A stretch of 64,000 nt of DNA from UHGV virus genome UHGV-1364441, one strand, 5' to 3'. This stretch comes from a virus. Below, one piece after another: positions 1,937 to 37,553 of this stretch; the first letter of the stretch is position 1, and every line of letters begins with the position of its first letter. The notes below the pieces were generated by a model. That model was not told the origin of the DNA, did not search any database, and was given only the letters and a program-made list of their open reading frames with translations. A program made the position numbers and the translations under genes.

Positions 1937-2001
1937 ACGAACATAGCCCCTTCATAAGCAATGAACCAAAGGAGAGTATGCTCAGTTTGTGATTTCCGTT
2001 G

Positions 2002-9474: not shown

Positions 9475-9569
9475 TTATTCCTCCGAAAAGCAGGTATCTG
9501 TTCATTTTCCAGAGGATAGGGAGTGTGTGATTTGCGATGGGGATTGAATGAAGATCTTTGCCGGTCGAG

Positions 9570-16397: not shown

Positions 16398-18095
16398 TCA
16401 CTTTTTTTCGTTAACCTTGCCTGTCAGCATGTCGATAGCACCTTCTTTGGCACGAGTCAGACGCAGGCGGGCGAAATAATTCTCACCGTTGCGCGGGTGG
16501 ACTTCGTTGATAGCACTACCCCAGAGAGTGGTGCGGTTAACGAGAGATGGATTGGTTTCGTGCACATACGGGATTGCTGGGACCGCATCACCAGCGATCA
16601 GCCCGGCTTTACCGATGCCTTCACCGCGACCATAGAAATAAATGTCATCCAGACCTAAGTCATATCCCTGAGCCTTGAATTGCTCACACACAGGCTGCGG
16701 CACTTCGTAAATACGAATCGTGCCAAACAGGGTGCCGATGTACTGCACATACGGTGACTGAACGTAGCCCGGCGCGATTTGGAAGTGCTGTGGAGGCAAA
16801 GAACGCAGGAAGTTAGCTGCGTCACCACCTGCGAAGCCACCGCGAATACCTGTGGTCAGGGTGCGGTTTGCCATTTCCTGAGACAGGGCGTTTACTGCGT
16901 GGCGCAGGAGGCCGACCCAGGACTCATAGTTTTGAGCTTCAGGCAGAGCCACATCAAATTCACGACCATAAACGGTATGGAATACCAGGGTGCGCAGACG
17001 CATGATGTCGGTTTCATGGGAGATCCAGTTCCGCATTGCGGAGAACTGAAGTGCCGCCAATTCAAGGCCGTGTTCACGGCTTAAATCGGAAGCGGACATT
17101 ACGGTGTGTTCGGAAGCAATTACGTACTGAGACGGTCGAACTTCATACTTACGCATAGCCTGGTTGATTACCGGAATCAGGCTTGGATTGCGCTCGATGT
17201 TAATTTCGACCTGAACCGCAATTTCAGTCCCTTCTGCTGGCGCTTGAGTGAAGGTAATGTCGATGACACCAGTGTCATAAGCGACTTTTGCGGTAGCTGA
17301 GAATGCATTGCCTTTGCAGTCTTTATCATTGAAATAAAGGTTGCCATCGCCGTCGTCAACCTTGGACGGTTTGCGGTTGATAAGCAGCTTGTTATAACCA
17401 GCACGCAGCGGGCAGGACTGCCCCTCAAAATTTTGGATGTCGAACTGGAAAGTTTTGGTGCTGCCGTCCCCTTTCGTGGAAAGGGTATACAGGCGCTTCA
17501 TTTGAGAATAAACACCAGCGGATTGCATATTCAGTTCGTCACCTTGCTCGAAGGTGCCGAATTTTGTGCCTGCTACGTTGACCAGTTCATAAATATTTGA
17601 CTCATCACGATCACAAGGAACAAAAGTACAGGCATCACTGGTAGCAGCACCCAGAGAGGCAGGCAGAATTAGTGCAGCATATTGAGCAACTTTCATTACG
17701 CCGTCAGAGCTACGCATTGATTGCGCGACAGACTCAAACATTGCCTTGCCAGTGCCTACGTGTGTATCGCTGGCACATTCAGTCATCAGGCGTTCAAGTG
17801 CCATGTGTGCGTTTGCCAGGATATCGCTTGCCGGGTAGTGACCATGCTGGCGCTTGTACTCATGCAGAGACATAGCCCACCCACCAGCGATCTGACGTGC
17901 AACCTCTGGATTTACGCCTTCAAACATAGCCTCCTTCTGGATAGCTTTATCCAGGTTCTCCATCATCGCTGCCTGATCAGCAATCATATTGCCCGCAGCA
18001 TCGGTGGTCGGATCGACGGTCATAGCCATGACGCTTGCCGCCCGATTCATAATCTCGCGCTCGCGATCACGAGCTGGCTGAATGTTTTTATTCAC
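16398..18095 (-). CDS. putative major head (capsid) protein
   Basis: 565-aa ORF heading structural operon; assignment by size/position analogy to P1 gp23. Confidence 0.4.
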   Translation of the reverse strand: MNKNIQPARDREREIMNRAASVMAMTVDPTTDAAGNMIADQAAMMENLDKAIQKEAMFEGVNPEVARQIAGGWAMSLHEYKRQHGHYPASDILANAHMALERLMTECASDTHVGTGKAMFESVAQSMRSSDGVMKVAQYAALILPASLGAATSDACTFVPCDRDESNIYELVNVAGTKFGTFEQGDELNMQSAGVYSQMKRLYTLSTKGDGSTKTFQFDIQNFEGQSCPLRAGYNKLLINRKPSKVDDGDGNLYFNDKDCKGNAFSATAKVAYDTGVIDITFTQAPAEGTEIAVQVEINIERNPSLIPVINQAMRKYEVRPSQYVIASEHTVMSASDLSREHGLELAALQFSAMRNWISHETDIMRLRTLVFHTVYGREFDVALPEAQNYESWVGLLRHAVNALSQEMANRTLTTGIRGGFAGGDAANFLRSLPPQHFQIAPGYVQSPYVQYIGTLFGTIRIYEVPQPVCEQFKAQGYDLGLDDIYFYGRGEGIGKAGLIAGDAVPAIPYVHETNPSLVNRTTLWGSAINEVHPRNGENYFARLRLTRAKEGAIDMLTGKVNEKK

Positions 18096-18220
18096 GGTTA
18101 AGCCCTAAATTCGGGCGCGGCGTGAAGGTTCTTTTGACGCGCTAACAATACCAACTTTGTGATTTAGTCAATAGCATTAGTAAAATAAAATCTGTTAACA
18201 CACGTGTTGTTATGTGGTTT

Positions 18221-20894: not shown

Positions 20895-20987
20895 TCTTCA
20901 TCTCCTGGTTATTCGCCTATTGTCATCACTTTGTTATTTCGTCACTCAAAGAGAGAGTGAAATCACGGAACATTTACAATTCCCGTT

Positions 20988-30583: not shown

Positions 30584-31494
30584 TCGATCACTCCGTTTTG
30601 AGTCGTATCAAAATTCCTGGCAGGTATGCAGTAGTAAAGCGAACCAACATGCTGTGTGCCGTAGCTAAAAATACGGTGCACGTACCACCAGCGGCGGGCT
30701 ACGCCGTTTACCATCTCTTCATTCCATTCAAGAATTGACCCGACGGGGACGTTATTTGCTGCAATACGCAGAATCAGAACATCATCGGTTAAGCCATCCT
30801 GCTCACCGTCTGCGTCAATCGCATGGAAAGAGTCACGCCCGTCCGGGTTATCCAGCACATAAACGATTTCAGGTTCCTGGTAAGTCAGTTCGCGCTGGTT
30901 GTTATCCAGTTCAGTGAATGACTCTTCTCCTGTTTCGTCGCTGACTACCCCATATGTGCCAACATCTGGTCGATATAAGAGAGCCTGAAACGCGTCTGGG
31001 CTGGATTCAATAATCAGCATCCAGTCTGCGCGGATTTGGTCGTTAAAGGCTTTATGCCCGTTATAGCGCGCTTTTAGCTGTGGAGTTGGTTCTCTGCCTG
31101 CCAGGGAAGGTGGAAGTATGGCTATATCTGATTCGCCAGCATCTGGAGTAAGGCCACCGTTGCTATCAGCAAAATTATCATGGCTATCAGCTTTGGCGGC
31201 GGGTTGCTCTTCCAGAATGCTGAATGAATCCGAACTGGTATTGCCATGTTCCGGCGCGCCTCCTGCATTCGCTTCAATCGGCGCTGGCGTTTCTCTCTGC
31301 GTGCTGTCATGTTCTGACCCCTTACTTGCCAGGTTTGCATCGTCAGAAAACCATTCGTCAAAACGGCCCATAAGCATCCTCAAAGGTCGATTTATCAGGT
31401 ATCGAGGGGCATTGTCTGGAGATTGTGATTTCACATGAACAAGCTCAAGTTGCACTTGCACTTGCGCATGGTGAATTGGGTTACAATTCATCAC
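30580..31494 (-). CDS. hypothetical protein (acidic, low-complexity N-terminal region)
   Basis: 304-aa ORF; start uncertain. Confidence 0.4.
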   Translation of the reverse strand: MMNCNPIHHAQVQVQLELVHVKSQSPDNAPRYLINRPLRMLMGRFDEWFSDDANLASKGSEHDSTQRETPAPIEANAGGAPEHGNTSSDSFSILEEQPAAKADSHDNFADSNGGLTPDAGESDIAILPPSLAGREPTPQLKARYNGHKAFNDQIRADWMLIIESSPDAFQALLYRPDVGTYGVVSDETGEESFTELDNNQRELTYQEPEIVYVLDNPDGRDSFHAIDADGEQDGLTDDVLILRIAANNVPVGSILEWNEEMVNGVARRWWYVHRIFSYGTQHVGSLYYCIPARNFDTTQNGVIE

Positions 31495-33551: not shown

Positions 33552-33845
33552 TTAAGCGTGGAAAAATAACGGGCGGATATTTGGGCGAGCGGTTTGTGAA
33601 GCGACCCAAAGCTCATACTGGGATTGCATACCAGTCCACATCTCGGCACTGGTTCCCAGAGCAGATTCCAGACGAAGCGCCATATCAGCAGAAATCCCTG
33701 CTTTCTCGTTCAGAATCCGAGAAAGCGCCGTGCGAGTAATGCCTAATGCGGCAGCTGCATCTGTGACTGATATGTCTCCCAGATACTCACGAAGAACCGC
33801 GCCAGGATGCGCGGGATTATGCATACGACTCATAGTGTTCCTCAA
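33552..33845 (-). CDS. higA: HigA-family antitoxin (XRE HTH)
   Basis: [15 protein letters not shown]...[37 protein letters not shown] is the characteristic HigA/VapI pattern; overlaps toxin gene by 4 nt. Confidence 0.8.
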
Positions 33846-34123
33846 TGATAATCCTGATAGTCAACAAGAATTGCGTCTTCGCCTTCAAATCGGAAGGTAA
33901 GTCGCCAGTTACCGTTTACTGATATTGCCCAGTGACCTTTAAGGTCTGCCCCCTTTAGTGGGTGCAATTCCCATCCCGGCGCAGACATATCGTCCGGGCG
34001 TTTAGCTGCATTAAGAGCAGTCAATTGAATGCGTAGCTTAATCGCATGTTTAGCTTGAATGCCTGCTGTTGATCCTGTCTTGAAAAATCGTTCAAGCCCT
34101 TTATGGCGAAATGACTTAATCAA
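33842..34123 (-). CDS. higB: HigB-family toxin (RelE/ParE superfamily)
   Basis: (M)[17 protein letters not shown]... with C-terminal [14 protein letters not shown]; start assigned to TTG at 34123 (ORF track extends to TTG at 34186 through the palindromic operator). Confidence 0.75.
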
Positions 34124-34147
34124 AATAACTTCATCCGTGCCTGTATC

Positions 34148-34161
34148 CTGTGTATACACAG
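34148..34161. promoter_or_regulatory. 14-bp perfect palindrome (ctgtgtatacacag) upstream of higB, putative HigA operator
   Basis: Read in sequence ~25 bp upstream of proposed TTG start. Confidence 0.5.
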
Positions 34162-34459
34162 TACACACGGAGAGGGCAAAGTGCAAGCACTATTCGGATG
34201 AACAGAGTTAGTTCGTTGTTCTGGAATTTATTGATTGTCAACAAGTGACTTTCATTAAACTTAAGGCATGGACCAGCTCGATAGTGAGCTGGTTGTTATC
34301 TACAGATCGAAGGGATTCGACAAGATGAATACTTTTAATAAGCTGATTGATTTATTGAATAAATTCATTAGCGCCTCTTTAACTAAGCAGGTGTCCACGT
34401 CAGTGTTTTTGTTACTCTTCTACCTGGTATTGCGGGAGTTAACAAAGCTACTGATGTGA

Positions 34460-35113
34460 TCAAAGTATCACTGTATCTTCATCAACTTCTTTCCCAGCCA
34501 GTGAATTTGGCTGGGGACTGCCTGCTTTAACCTTTTCATGCCCAATAATGGACAGGAACGAAGCGAGGATGCCTGTTTTGTGCTCTTTCTCGACTGTACC
34601 TGTCATCTGTTCCACGTAATCCGCACTGGCAACGTTGTGGTATACGGTCGCGTAGCAACACAGGATCATAAGAATATGTTCCGGCCTGATGTCCTGCCAG
34701 TTCACCCGGTAGACTTCTTCTCCGTTACCGTTGTATTCGGTGTCAACGATGGAGTCGGGGATTTCGAAAGCACCTTTGTTATTTTGCGGCAGGGATAATA
34801 GCTTCTGGAGTTTTAGCTCTCTGTATCTTTCCATCCCGACGATGATCGCAGCTCTGCCGTCGGCATGACGTGTCTTGAGTGTTACCTGGCTTGCTCCGGT
34901 GCCAGCGGAGATCGTTGGCGTAATTTCGTCTACCAGCACCTTAAATTTGCTTTTCCGCAGGGCTGCTATAGCTGGAGGAATTTTTTGCTTTTGTTCCAAT
35001 GCTGACGCGGGAAGGGGTTTTACTTCGTTAATCACGAGAGCGCCGTCTTTCAGTATTGCAGTGAGCATTTGCGGTTTGCTGGTGGTCAGGCTGAATATTG
35101 CGATCTTTTCCAT
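34460..35113 (-). CDS. hypothetical protein
   Basis: Start at MEKIAIF with GGAGGAAGG RBS; ORF-track start at 35155 lies inside a terminator hairpin. Confidence 0.5.
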   Translation of the reverse strand: MEKIAIFSLTTSKPQMLTAILKDGALVINEVKPLPASALEQKQKIPPAIAALRKSKFKVLVDEITPTISAGTGASQVTLKTRHADGRAAIIVGMERYRELKLQKLLSLPQNNKGAFEIPDSIVDTEYNGNGEEVYRVNWQDIRPEHILMILCCYATVYHNVASADYVEQMTGTVEKEHKTGILASFLSIIGHEKVKAGSPQPNSLAGKEVDEDTVIL

Positions 35114-35140
35114 TGTCCTTCCTCCACGGATGACGGATAC

Positions 35141-35164
35141 AAAAAAAGGCCGCACATGGCGGCC
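35141..35164 (-). terminator. rho-independent terminator on minus strand immediately upstream of 34460..35113
   Basis: ggccgc-acatg-gcggcc followed on the minus strand by seven U. Confidence 0.55.
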
Positions 35165-35381
35165 TGCTTTGGCGTTATGACTCCCTACCGCGCTTCGGCT
35201 GAAAGTTAATCGTCAAAAGAACCTTCAACGGGAGCCGTTAGCGCGATGGATTATGTGCAGTTTGTGATTTCCAGAATAGTGTCAACTACTTTTTTGTGGA
35301 TTTTTTATTTGCCTGAAATTTGGCCTAAATCATGTTGATGTAGCTTGTTGTTTTTATAACATAAAACTTCATTTTGTTTAC

Positions 35382-36005
35382 ATGAAGGACGGTGTAGTGA
35401 AGTTAAGGGTTTTGGGGGCCGCGCTCGCGGCTATGCTGGGATGTGTATCTGTAAATACAGCCACTGCAACTGCGTTACCCGCACAATTCAGGGCAGGGAA
35501 GCAGGTTATGAATAATGCTGGCGGGGATCGTTCGCAGGCGGCGATATTGGACTTTTGCAAGAGGGAGGGCATCCCATTGCGGCCTGTTGGCACTCAGTTT
35601 GTTGGCAATTCTGACTTTTGCGTTTTTGCATATACAGCGTATCTGACTGATAAAGCTATAACAAAAACAGGTTATTCAACTAAAGATACTCTTGCCAGAT
35701 TAAGTCAGGGATGGCAGCAATTCGAAGTGTATCGCCAGCAAGGATTAGGTGAGCTATTGCAGCCACTTTTTATGCTTGCCTTGGTGCCAGAAGGGCAGCA
35801 ATTTTTGGTTAAAAAGAGAATGCTTCGCCAAAGCGATGTTGCCGGGTTCGATAGCATGATGGCTTATGAGCGCCAACTAACTGAGCAGCGCAATAAAAAA
35901 CCATCTGCATCATGTGTGCAAAGTAAAACAGCAGAATACAGTGCAGTGGCTGGTCCTTTAGCCAAACAAATGGCAGAGCAATGGTGTAAAAAGTACGGGC
36001 AATAA
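35382..36005 (+). CDS. secreted protein / possible lipoprotein
   Basis: N-terminal signal peptide (LRVLGAALAAMLGC); no family recognised. Confidence 0.5.
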   Translation: MKDGVVKLRVLGAALAAMLGCVSVNTATATALPAQFRAGKQVMNNAGGDRSQAAILDFCKREGIPLRPVGTQFVGNSDFCVFAYTAYLTDKAITKTGYSTKDTLARLSQGWQQFEVYRQQGLGELLQPLFMLALVPEGQQFLVKKRMLRQSDVAGFDSMMAYERQLTEQRNKKPSASCVQSKTAEYSAVAGPLAKQMAEQWCKKYGQ

Positions 36006-36025
36006 GTTACGTAGCGGAGGCAAAA

Positions 36026-36418
36026 TTGAAAAAATTAGCTATTGCTTTATTGGCTGCTTTTCCTTTGCTGGCAGACGCTGGGAATCTGCAAGTGAAATGC
36101 GGTCAGTTTGATATAAAAATCTATCCAAACGCTATATTTCTGAACGGGAATAAGGTCGATAACGCACATCGTAAAACTGAATCTGACGTAATGAGTTATG
36201 TGTTCCAGGAATATGCAGAGATGGGAGGCACTTATACGCTGTACTCGCTTGATGTTCCTTCTCGCGGTGATATGACATTATCCCATCAATGGCAGAATGC
36301 CGATGGCGAAGCTCTGCGCGAGGTGAAGACAGAAAAATGTGGCACTTTCCATTCTTTTGAGGGTAAAGCGCCAAATGTTAAATCTGTGCTTGAAAAACAG
36401 CGTGCAGGTGAGTTTTAA
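36026..36418 (+). CDS. secreted protein
   Basis: Signal peptide MKKLAIALLAAFPLLADA; 130 aa. Confidence 0.5.
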   Translation: MKKLAIALLAAFPLLADAGNLQVKCGQFDIKIYPNAIFLNGNKVDNAHRKTESDVMSYVFQEYAEMGGTYTLYSLDVPSRGDMTLSHQWQNADGEALREVKTEKCGTFHSFEGKAPNVKSVLEKQRAGEF

Positions 36419-36432
36419 CCAGTATTAATTAT

Positions 36433-36470
36433 GCCGCCCCACCTTATAGCGGAGTGGGGCGGATTGTTCC
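36433..36470 (+). terminator. rho-independent terminator after secreted-protein pair
   Basis: ccgcccca...tggggcgg hairpin followed by T-rich tract. Confidence 0.5.
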
Positions 36471-36964
36471 CATTGTTATTTTTTTCTTTTCATTTTCATG
36501 GATTGTTTACAGGCATAAGCCAACGCCTTAGCTTTCACTTCATCCAGTTTCCCTGTAATCACTTCTTTTCCGAGAGTGACAAACCAGTCATAGCAACCGC
36601 CAGTGATGTTCTGGATTTGATAATTCAGGTAGCGAACGGTCATTTTGATACTCCCTCCAGTTTTGATGGGAGCAAAGAACGCAGGTTATTGCGTGAGTAG
36701 ACGGTGAGTGATGGGAAAAGTTTGTAATTGTTCATAGTGACTCCTTGCTTTCGAAGCCGTCACAGACTGTTCCACGGTCTGGTGGCGGCGCAATACAGGT
36801 TGGAACACCGTGAGTCAACGGGGGCTTTTAGCCACCTGTATTGCGCTGCCATAACTATGACATTGGCAATCATACGAAATCCTTGAGGATTTGTCTCGTT
36901 GCGTCGAGCGGTGAACCAATCTAATCAAAATGTACAATCAGTAAATTTCAAACTCAACATAAAA

Positions 36965-36976
36965 TGTTAGAAAATT
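36965..36976. promoter_or_regulatory. operator-like motif tgttagaaaatt
   Basis: Member of recurring motif family; overlaps stop of ref-like gene. Confidence 0.4.
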
Positions 36977-37553
36977 AATTCACCATTTCTTGCACCGTCT
37001 GATAGAGCGTCATCTCTTCGGCATTGTGCCGTATAAAATCTGCTTTCCCGCCTATTTTTCCATCAGCATGAACAGGAACCAACCAGGGATATTGTTCGCG
37101 GATCTCTGCTGGCGCTGCGTGCTGGTGGTGCCATTTACACAAAGGGAGAACGTATTTATGGGCATCTTTAGCCGTTCTGCCAAATATGTGGTGGAGAGAT
37201 ACGACAGGGCTATGCTTCCCGTGAAGATGGCAGGCAATACAGGGGAGTTTGCCTATAGCGTCCTGTATCCGGCGCTCTTCTGCTGTGAGTGATCTCCCTT
37301 TTAATCCGCGTGACGGGCGCGTTTTTTTGGGGAGGGCTGACGCCGCCCTCTCTCTTCTGCGCTGTTCACTTTGCCTCACTTTTTCAAGTTTCTTTTGACG
37401 ATATTCAGGCGATGCGGCTTTTTCCCTTGCGCGTTGCTGCTGGCGTTGAGCCTGCTGAAGACGTTTTGCCCTTTGCTCTTCCCGCCATTCCGGATCAGCC
37501 AGTTTTTGCATGGCTTTTTGTCTCTGTTTCTCCCAATAACTCTGTCTCTGCAT
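36975..37553 (-). CDS. ref: Ref-like HNH endonuclease (P1 recombination enhancement function-like)
   Basis: Arg/Gln-rich N-terminus then HNH zinc-finger block LPCIACHLHG...VSLHHI.GRT...LPLCKWHHQHAAP...YPWLVPVHADG, matching P1 Ref as recalled. Confidence 0.7.
   Translation of the reverse strand: MQRQSYWEKQRQKAMQKLADPEWREEQRAKRLQQAQRQQQRAREKAASPEYRQKKLEKVRQSEQRRRERAASALPKKTRPSRGLKGRSLTAEERRIQDAIGKLPCIACHLHGKHSPVVSLHHIFGRTAKDAHKYVLPLCKWHHQHAAPAEIREQYPWLVPVHADGKIGGKADFIRHNAEEMTLYQTVQEMVN

Follow-up and report, generated by a model that had tools for sequence, protein, structure and literature searches.

What a strong intrinsic terminator is doing a few tens of nucleotides ahead of a phage gene, with no evident gene of its own to end, is the question raised by positions 35141..35380 of the window, the 64,000-nt stretch of the virus genome UHGV-1364441 that we analysed. 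An earlier note, made from the letters of this DNA alone, had pointed to a minus-strand hairpin with a run of seven U residues beside some 200 bp of non-coding DNA, and had offered two readings of it, a small RNA or an attenuator of the gene downstream. By comparing the stretch with its relatives across phage-plasmid lineages, we identify it as a conserved, unannotated gene for a structured RNA of approximately 105 nt in P1-like phage-plasmids, and we trace a probable partner for that RNA in the messenger of the major capsid protein.

The locus ahead of mat

Phage-plasmids of the P1 and D6 type are common in Enterobacterales, and resistance genes are frequent among their cargo. Over the 301 bases that surround the finding, the window is 94–96% identical to Escherichia phage D6 and to approximately 100 Escherichia coli plasmids of about 90 kb; all matches found were plasmid or phage D6 records, with no chromosomal match among them. 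On the strength of this identity and of the mat annotation in those records, we assign the window to a D6-like member of the P1 family. Records of D6 and its RefSeq relatives give the name mat (maturation control protein) to the gene at 34460..35113 (minus strand) and call its divergent neighbour at 35382..36005 simB-like or hypothetical; the D6 and RefSeq plasmid records examined show no RNA annotation. Positions 35290..35380 are chiefly the divergent promoter region of that neighbour. In the Leclercia and Pantoea relatives, mat is followed directly by baseplate and tail genes with the P1 names 26, 25, 7, 24, 6 and 5. We found no Pfam family for Mat, and its AlphaFold model (pLDDT 79.8) is most like RNase H-fold nucleases (the nuclease domain of the large terminase, RuvC) at modest TM-scores; in view of this predicted fold, we set aside the idea of Mat as an RNA-binding protein or antiterminator.

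The terminator itself is real. A terminator scan placed the hairpin AGGCCGC-CAUGU-GCGGCCU at 35165..35147 and TTTTTTT at 35146..35140, both on the minus strand, so that the element at 35140..35165 has the G+C-rich hairpin (a 7-bp stem with 6 G-C pairs, and a 5-nt loop) and the immediate U-run (U7) of an intrinsic, Rho-independent terminator; folded alone, the hairpin has a free energy of −15.1 kcal/mol (z = −2.1). Its conservation, on which the earlier note had staked its reading, is complete: the hairpin is kept in all related elements, with 100% of cells paired, two covarying pairs and compensatory changes from G-C to A-U. The U-tails are shorter elsewhere (U5 in the Klebsiella type, U3 in the Pantoea type), so that terminators of these two types may be weak and Hfq binding to them is uncertain. 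As the note had stated, the terminator lies just upstream of mat, with 27 nt between the U-run and the ATG at 35113. This gap is too short to hold a further promoter, and mat could therefore be transcribed solely by read-through, which is the behaviour of an attenuator and bears out that half of the note's proposal.

That the stretch is non-coding was likewise upheld, as no conserved reading frame was found in 35141..35380. A 17-codon frame with a UUG start lies inside the RNA and is broken by 1-nt insertions or deletions in relatives; a small open reading frame or leader peptide was rejected for this lack of conservation. The claim of a 200-bp feature needs trimming: the stretch does hold a conserved, terminated RNA, but this RNA, on the minus strand at 35141..35247 with its 5′ end set from the −10 hexamer and its 3′ end at the U-run, ends at 35141 and does not fill the 240 bp. 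A block of approximately 110 nt, from just past the hexamer CATAAT to the U-run, is conserved far above both flanks, the coding start of mat included. An Enterobacter hormaechei plasmid has only a core of approximately 130 nt in common with the window, and the terminator stem within that core carries a compensatory change from G-C to A-U.

The same block precedes mat in Klebsiella and Raoultella plasmids, in Leclercia, in Pantoea and in further lineages reached through homologs of Mat. It was present at 51 of 55 metagenomic mat loci (the misses are three incomplete contigs and one deletion), and a pattern scan of viral-contig DNA returned 58 loci, 57 with the element beside mat and one chance match. 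The distance from the end of the RNA to mat is 12–35 nt in every lineage except for the Raoultella locus L074, where a short insertion brings it to approximately 70 nt. In all sampled lineages other than P1, the RNA thus precedes mat, and its synteny with mat is strict while the upstream neighbours vary. In P1 it is absent: a covariance-model search of approximately 92 kb gave at best 15.7 bits, at the terminator of the ref leader, and the −10 hexamer of the P1 promoter LPmat lies only 20 nt from the mat ATG. In the window, the same model scored 132.6 bits at 35141..35250, its sole copy there. The RNA matched no Rfam family, ribozyme or riboswitch, and we accordingly rejected any such identity for it.

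On the promoter, the first description had to be revised. The TTGACA element that it had named as −35-like is present on the same strand (35285..35280), its TTGAC is kept in most lineages and in P1 Pmat, and in one relative, RL465, homology to the window begins exactly at this element. It sits, however, 24 nt upstream of CATAAT (35255..35250), the sole good −10 hexamer, and so is no canonical −35. With this spacing, and with no sigma-70 promoter detected at the locus by a simple sigma-70 scan, a canonical promoter was rejected in favour of one of the late type at 35250..35272, composed of the box GGAAATCACAAACTG, a 2-nt spacer and CATAAT. As criteria for a late promoter of the P1 family we used a conserved box near −22 in place of the −35, a −10 hexamer TAnnnT, and repetition before late operons. 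The 15-mer box GGAAATCACAAACTG has nine matches in the window at up to three mismatches, against 2.35 expected, eight of them on the minus strand. Five stand just before a gene start, the promoter of the RNA included, and the other four precede tail and head genes, namely homologs of the tail-fibre assembly protein R, PmgB, a PAAR protein and a tail protein. With a wider motif, a sixth copy precedes the capsid gene, where the promoter at 18145..18171 (minus strand) comprises TTGACT, the box AAATCACAAAG and the −10 hexamer TATTGT and belongs to the same motif family. In the Leclercia and Pantoea relatives, the motif with a TAnnnT hexamer precedes capsid, lysozyme and baseplate genes. Across the three genomes, the box AAAKYACAMAC with its −10 hexamer thus stands before tail, head, lysis and capsid genes, as expected of late (Lpa-type) promoters.

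From this motif and its gene context, we infer a late promoter for the RNA. The late promoters of P1 are activated by Lpa (PMC10695390). The P1 late box AAGTGACTT-N4, at −22, is analogous to the box in the window, although its sequence is different, as is its distance from the −10 hexamer. The plasmid of the Pantoea relative carries a gene annotated as an Lpa homolog, and by analogy the promoter of the RNA is probably Lpa-dependent.

A covarying three-way junction

With a covariance model built on the comparative fold, we collected and aligned the RNAs of all lineages, 22 distinct sequences in total. The RNA folds into a three-way junction defined by covariation (35172..35244, minus strand). 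Helix P1 pairs GCGCUA (35244..35239) with UAACGC (35177..35172), with six pairs doubly compensated and 83% of cells paired, and helix P2 pairs GGCUCCC (35236..35230) with GGGAGUC (35185..35179), again with six pairs doubly compensated and with 92% of cells paired. Read by hand, P2 changes to GAUUCUUU/AAAGAAUC at locus L075 and to GCGAACC/GGUUCGU at L130. Next comes the stem-loop P3 (35201..35227), whose covarying stem joins GAAGGUU (35226..35220) to AACUUUC (35207..35201) and whose 12-nt loop CUUUUGACGAUU (35219..35208) is nearly invariant, with the consensus (C/U)UUUUG(A/G)C(G/A)A(U/C)U. Towards the 3′ end follow a small hairpin P4 (35199..35187), a short linker and the terminator. The hexamer GCGCGG (35188..35193), partly within P4, is invariant in 22 of 22 distinct sequences. 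Over these 22 sequences, in an alignment that was itself fitted to the structure, 91.6% of cells are paired and 18 of 31 pairs show double changes; in the same structure-fitted alignment, none of 500 shuffles matched the observed values, and sliding the partners out of register left 35–51% paired.

The minimum-energy fold of the single sequence, which contains a helix AUCGCGCU/AGCGCGGU, was rejected as unsupported across the family. One lineage carries a swap from U-A to A-U that agrees with this helix, which may be a transient alternative; its combination with P2 into a pseudoknot was also dismissed, as sterically unlikely and unsupported.

These folds bear on a rival account, in which the RNA is purely a leader in cis that sets or regulates read-through into mat and the baseplate genes, for instance as a platform for a phage antiterminator, the short RNA once released does nothing, and its complementarity to the capsid messenger, described below, is incidental. 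The strict synteny with mat despite variable upstream neighbours would follow naturally from such a role, as would the lack of room for a promoter between terminator and gene, and terminator strength differs between lineages. In P1, moreover, the leader of the neighbouring ref gene ends in a terminator and has been read as attenuator–antiterminator control, at least as that work is cited in PMC10695390. At our locus a terminator does stand between promoter and reading frame, yet we found no conserved antiterminator pairing: the terminator is present in all minimum-energy and suboptimal folds, and the sole alternative helix, AUCGCGCU/AGCGCGGU, has no covariation behind it and lies clear of the terminator. 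No conserved helix competes with the terminator, and a purely local role leaves unexplained why the P3 loop is invariant and why it covaries with the capsid leader, with one such variant predicted in advance. We therefore consider this account quite unlikely as the whole explanation, while an attenuator role as such is compatible with the model favoured here and already included in it.

Complementarity to the leader of the capsid messenger

To look for partners of the exposed loop, we scanned for duplexes with the P3 loop region in the window, in Leclercia pE1_003 and in the Pantoea plasmid (whole or near-whole genomes), and kept only sites at homologous positions across the three. The retained site is the leader of the gene at 16398..18095 (minus strand), a homolog of P1 gene 23 for the major capsid protein, whose homologs are named capsid protein or gp23 in their sources; we propose its messenger as the target. 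The site ranked 1, 4 and 4 in the three genomes, rank 0 being the antisense strand of the RNA itself. In the window, a 17-nt seed UGAAGGUUCUUUUGACG (35227..35211), which covers the 5′ strand of P3 and most of its loop, is the perfect complement of CGUCAAAAGAACCUUCA at 18123..18139 (site A), which begins a few nucleotides past the predicted transcript start of the capsid messenger, at its 5′ end. No exact complement of the RNA longer than these 17 nt exists in the window; of 30 shuffled versions, 28 reached 10–13 nt and one each 14 and 15 nt.

The complementarity is kept through changes on both partners in seven lineages, with RNA and leader taken from the same contig in all of them except E. 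hormaechei, where they come from different isolates. In the D6 type, GGUUC of the RNA faces GAACC of the leader in Watson–Crick pairs (UU:AA); in Pantoea, GGAAU faces AUUCC (AA:UU), also Watson–Crick, and target variants keep G-U pairs; in Klebsiella and Leclercia, GGUAC faces GUAAC (UA:UA) with one internal mismatch; and in Raoultella and E. hormaechei, GAGGGUUCUUUUGAC pairs with GUCAAAAGAACUUUC at 15 of 15 positions, two of them as G-U. The rule also held in advance: a loop UUUUGGC was predicted to occur with a target GCCAAAA, and this was confirmed in one phage with both loci on a single JGI contig, where the RNA GAGGUUUUUUGGCG and the leader CGCCAAAAAACCUC form 14 of 14 Watson–Crick pairs. 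Searches of plasmid collections returned no further relatives with this G-variant loop. When RNAs and leaders were crossed between lineages, those of Pantoea and of the G-variant phage clearly favoured their own leaders, and close lineages were interchangeable, with one non-cognate pair outscoring the cognate one.

Complementarity between two loci could also arise in DNA. If GTCAAAAGAACCTTC were an operator, inverted behind two late promoters and bound by one protein, the two copies would co-evolve with that protein and would look complementary as RNA; wherever the pairing is perfect, inverted identical double-stranded DNA is indistinguishable from RNA complementarity, and both copies do lie within approximately 40 bp downstream of late-type promoters. 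The imperfect pairs tell the two apart. Five of the six departures from Watson–Crick pairing (in a D6 variant, at two positions in Raoultella and E. hormaechei, and in two Pantoea variants) are transitions that preserve a G-U pair, which favours RNA–RNA pairing over a shared operator. One copy, moreover, sits in a covarying stem-loop with the motif in its loop, and the other lies against a covarying stem in which the ribosome-binding site is sequestered. A shared operator thus seems to us very improbable.

Nearer candidates gave nothing comparable. The flanks, the ribosome-binding site of mat and the ref gene hold no conserved complementary site; a 13-nt match inside ref was rejected as specific to the window and to locus L064, and pairing with the C4 RNA of D6 was rejected since inspection showed no meaningful complementarity. 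Taken together, a putative promoter, a terminator, a conserved structure, an exposed seed and a target that covaries in seven lineages are the sequence features of a trans-acting small RNA, and the first half of the earlier proposal, a small RNA, is thus supported on comparative grounds as a conserved, structured, terminated RNA with a covarying target in trans.

The capsid leader has a conserved fold of its own, which is self-inhibitory. In seven of seven lineages, a stem-loop that lies at 18091..18126 (minus strand) in the window makes up all or part of the minimum-energy structure. The GUG start codon at 18095..18093 is buried in its outer helix, formed by UUCACG (18126..18121) and CGUGAA (18096..18091), and the Shine–Dalgarno sequence in its inner helix, formed by GCCC (18116..18113) and GGGC (18105..18102). 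In an RNAalifold consensus of 13 sequences, two pairs of the outer helix are compensatory (UUCAC/GUGAA versus CUCAC/GUGAG) and covary with the second codon. Abutting the anti-Shine–Dalgarno strand lies CCGCGC (18120..18115, site B), which is invariant in every capsid leader and complementary to GCGCGG of the RNA, making the latter a candidate second contact site. That these two can pair is suggested by their being invariant, complementary hexamers; in the lowest-energy cofold, GCGCGG remains within the RNA's own fold.

As a separate observation on P1, in which the RNA is absent, AUGGAUCCCUUUUC, at the start of the mat messenger, complements GAAAAGGGAUUCA in the gene-23 leader of P1 itself, in a genome where 10-nt matches are common, and the 5′ end of that leader can pair with its own Shine–Dalgarno sequence. 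A link between the 5′ region of mat and the capsid leader may conceivably be ancestral.

Proposed role and relation to known systems

The duplex between RNA and capsid leader spans UUCACG and reaches 17–19 bp in the window phage. Six of the seven lineages gain between 7.5 and 16 kcal/mol when RNA and leader are cofolded; the Klebsiella-type pair, with its internal mismatch, shows no net gain. In the cofold model the start codon is freed and the Shine–Dalgarno hairpin stays closed. The arrangement is that known from DsrA, with a leader that masks its own Shine–Dalgarno sequence and start codon and an RNA that pairs with the masking strand.

We consider it somewhat better than an even chance that the element is at once a late small RNA and the attenuated leader of the mat operon, and that it activates capsid translation; late transcription, accumulation of the RNA and activation as the direction of its effect are the steps that we infer. 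According to this model, 35141..35272 (minus strand) would be a late-expressed gene transcribed from the late-box promoter, and most transcripts would run through the three-way junction and end at the terminator 27 nt ahead of mat. The fraction that reads through would be the sole source of mat mRNA and, in relatives, also of mRNA for the downstream baseplate and tail genes, which would make the element both an attenuating leader and a small-RNA gene. The exposed 12-nt loop of P3, with its YUNR-type UUGA motif, would nucleate pairing with the outermost 5′ nucleotides of the capsid mRNA, from where the duplex would spread into the 5′ strand of P3 to its full 17–19 bp. In doing so it would take up UUCACG, and GCGCGG could pair with CCGCGC beside the anti-Shine–Dalgarno strand, so that the start codon, and possibly the Shine–Dalgarno sequence, would be freed and capsid translation turned on by an anti-antisense mechanism. 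The RNA would thereby probably switch on capsid synthesis late in infection.

The same duplex could instead be destructive, with RNase III cleavage and decay, or another form of repression, limiting or delaying capsid synthesis. A perfect helix of 17–19 bp is long enough for RNase III, and the Shine–Dalgarno hairpin is still closed in the cofold model. The site nevertheless has the geometry seen in known activators, lying 5′ of the ribosome footprint and sharing sequence with the strand that masks the start codon, and a late RNA that destroyed the messenger of the most abundant late protein would seem counter-productive; we regard repression as unlikely. Information might also flow the other way, the abundant capsid leader pairing with P3 and GCGCGG of the nascent mat leader while this is being transcribed, and changing its folding and the efficiency of termination there, so that capsid transcription would license the mat and baseplate genes. 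The same complementarity fits this reversal, which would also account for the constant fusion of the RNA to mat. The paired segments, however, are clear of the terminator stem, no antiterminator structure was found, and the self-inhibitory fold of the capsid leader would have no explanation; we give this reversal very little credence.

In a bolder reading, to which we give a probability well short of even, capsid translation in D6-like phage-plasmids of the P1 family may be gated by a dedicated late small RNA that is at the same time the leader of the mat and baseplate operon. Transcription of the tail and baseplate operon would in that case license the synthesis of head protein, an RNA-based coupling of head and tail morphogenesis, and the 'maturation control' phenotype of mat may in part be an effect of this RNA. 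To our knowledge, late regulation in P1- and D6-like phages has been thought to depend on the activator Lpa alone, and small RNAs that a phage aims at its own structural-gene mRNA have rarely been described. If such an RNA, unannotated and conserved across nine or more lineages, pairs with the capsid mRNA, late control would gain a post-transcriptional step, and the placing of a terminator ahead of mat would be explained. The RNA–target pair comes with natural compensatory variants, offers a new family for RNA databases, and could provide a handle for uncoupling capsid synthesis in P1-type vectors.

Among known systems, the order of promoter, RNA, terminator and protein gene recalls type III toxin–antitoxin loci (ToxI/ToxN), where the terminator sets the ratio of RNA to protein. 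Unlike ToxI, with its tandem direct repeats of approximately 36 nt, the RNA is, judged by reading its sequence, a single unit without tandem repeats, and mat, which serves phage morphogenesis, is listed as essential in work on P1.

Closer in phylogeny are the C4 RNA of P1 and P7 (RF01695) and the isrK-like immI leader (RF01394), small structured RNAs of the same phage family. C4 uses two short recognition sites (a and b) on its target leader, and in D6 a terminated leader lies just upstream of C4. Neither family model recognises the present RNA: RF01695 has no match in the window at its threshold of 45 bits, nor in 34000..36500 at E ≤ 10, while the same model finds the C4 of D6 itself at 76 bits elsewhere, and RF01394 reaches 14.7 bits (E = 5) against a threshold of 50 bits, with the terminator alone aligned. 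C4 is cut from a longer transcript and represses icd and ant in immunity, whereas the RNA described here would be a primary transcript from a late promoter, ended by a terminator and directed at a structural gene.

The ref attenuator of P1 (Windle, Laufer and Hays 1988, as cited in PMC10695390) adjoins mat and resembles the element in layout, with a promoter, a leader of approximately 85 nt, and a strong G+C-rich hairpin with U8 placed 6 nt before the start codon. The likeness to our covariance model there (15.7 bits, E of approximately 0.1) is confined to the terminator, and ref is controlled by the C1 repressor with no known target in trans, in contrast to the late promoter of the RNA.

The regulation of rpoS by DsrA and RprA offers the nearest precedent for the proposed effect. 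DsrA activates rpoS translation by an anti-antisense mechanism (PMC2831331); there, too, the leader folds back on the region of the ribosome-binding site, base pairing of the small RNA to the inhibitory strand upstream sets that site free, and the resulting duplex is possibly an RNase III site as well (PMC2831331). Those are different RNAs acting on host genes with the help of Hfq, whereas in the window phage the duplex starts right at the 5′ terminus of the mRNA, is perfect and is far longer.

For the way in which the RNA would be made, the closest parallels are StxS and the lambda 6S RNA, short late-promoter RNAs (PR′ to tR′) that end at a terminator directly before the late genes. In the case of StxS, a transcript terminated just past the phage late promoter acts as a regulatory small RNA, and this terminated product base-pairs with its targets, with anti-antisense activation among its effects (PMC7547250). 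The resemblance is one of design: there is no sequence or Rfam kinship, and a covarying three-way junction sets the window RNA apart. In lambdoid phages the promoter is constitutive and Q antiterminates; the promoter here is of the P1 late (Lpa) type, with no antiterminator known. Lastly, the targets described there for StxS are Stx1 and RpoS (PMC7547250), whereas the target proposed for the window RNA is the capsid mRNA of the phage itself.

Variation around mat on plasmids and in phage relatives

Many large conjugative Klebsiella/Raoultella plasmids carry a prophage remnant that adjoins an ars operon and comprises a ref fragment, the predicted structured late RNA, the maturation control gene mat and the baseplate/tail genes 26 and 25 (P1 names). 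Such remnants were found in the Klebsiella-type loci L010 and L012 and in L108 (1380..1500). At L108 a deletion has removed the body of the RNA, leaving the terminator and mat alone. At a Raoultella locus (L074 1931..2000), an insertion of approximately 45 nt separates the terminator from mat and holds a second late-box-like sequence, ATTTCACACTTCATACATAG; mat might have its own promoter in this lineage.

The Mat protein itself (34460..35113, minus strand) has no Pfam family. Its AlphaFold model (pLDDT 79.8) is closest to nucleases with an RNase H fold, specifically RuvC resolvase and the nuclease domain of the large terminase (TM about 0.45). Mat may therefore process DNA as a nuclease and not be a regulator. 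Downstream in the window, a HigB/HigA-like toxin–antitoxin pair (33552..34186, minus strand) is inserted between mat and the homologue of baseplate gene 26; these two genes directly overlap in Leclercia, Pantoea and Klebsiella-type relatives.

Late-promoter motif and a loop complement within ref

Five sites in the window, all on the minus strand (1975..1997, 9513..9535, 18145..18165, 20919..20941 and 31411..31433), share a late-promoter motif in which a TAnnnT-like −10 hexamer comes after AAA(G/T)(C/T)ACA(A/C)A... The genes immediately 3′ of these copies encode tail-fibre assembly, pmgB-like, capsid, PAAR-like and tail proteins, and the recurring motif appears to be the D6-clade equivalent of the P1 Lpa box. 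Elsewhere in the window, an Rfam scan identified three tRNA genes (60327..61518, minus strand).

An exact 13-nt complement of the P3 loop of the RNA, AUCGUCAAAAGAA, also lies within ref (37392..37404, minus strand), in the part coding for the lysine/arginine-rich N terminus. Because phage D6 and most relatives are mismatched at this site, the match is probably due to chance or specific to this strain.

Comparison with phages D6 and P1

In D6 (L001 2807..3017, compared with window 36419..36975), the C4 RNA comes after an isrK-like terminated leader bearing the C4 target sites, and icd and the antirepressor gene lie downstream of the C4 RNA. Between ref and mat, the window contains none of C4, icd and ant, and its full 64 kb yielded no match to C4. 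The window ref gene (36975..37553) has no upstream terminator of the P1 type, whereas P1 ref has a leader of approximately 85 nt (L008 1985..2076) ending in a strong terminator, GGCGGCC-AUUA-GGCCGCC-U8, only 6 nt from the ref ATG, the attenuator described in 1988 (Windle, Laufer and Hays, as cited in PMC10695390).

The RNA is absent from P1. There, the mat start region, AUGGAUCCCUUUUC, is complementary to the leader of gene 23, GAAAAGGGAUUCA, over 13 bp including one G-U (L008 2713..2729 and L135 790..830), and CUCUUCC at the 5′ end of this leader can pair with the leader's own Shine–Dalgarno sequence, GGAAGAG. The P1 complementarity may represent an ancestral connection of mat to the capsid leader.
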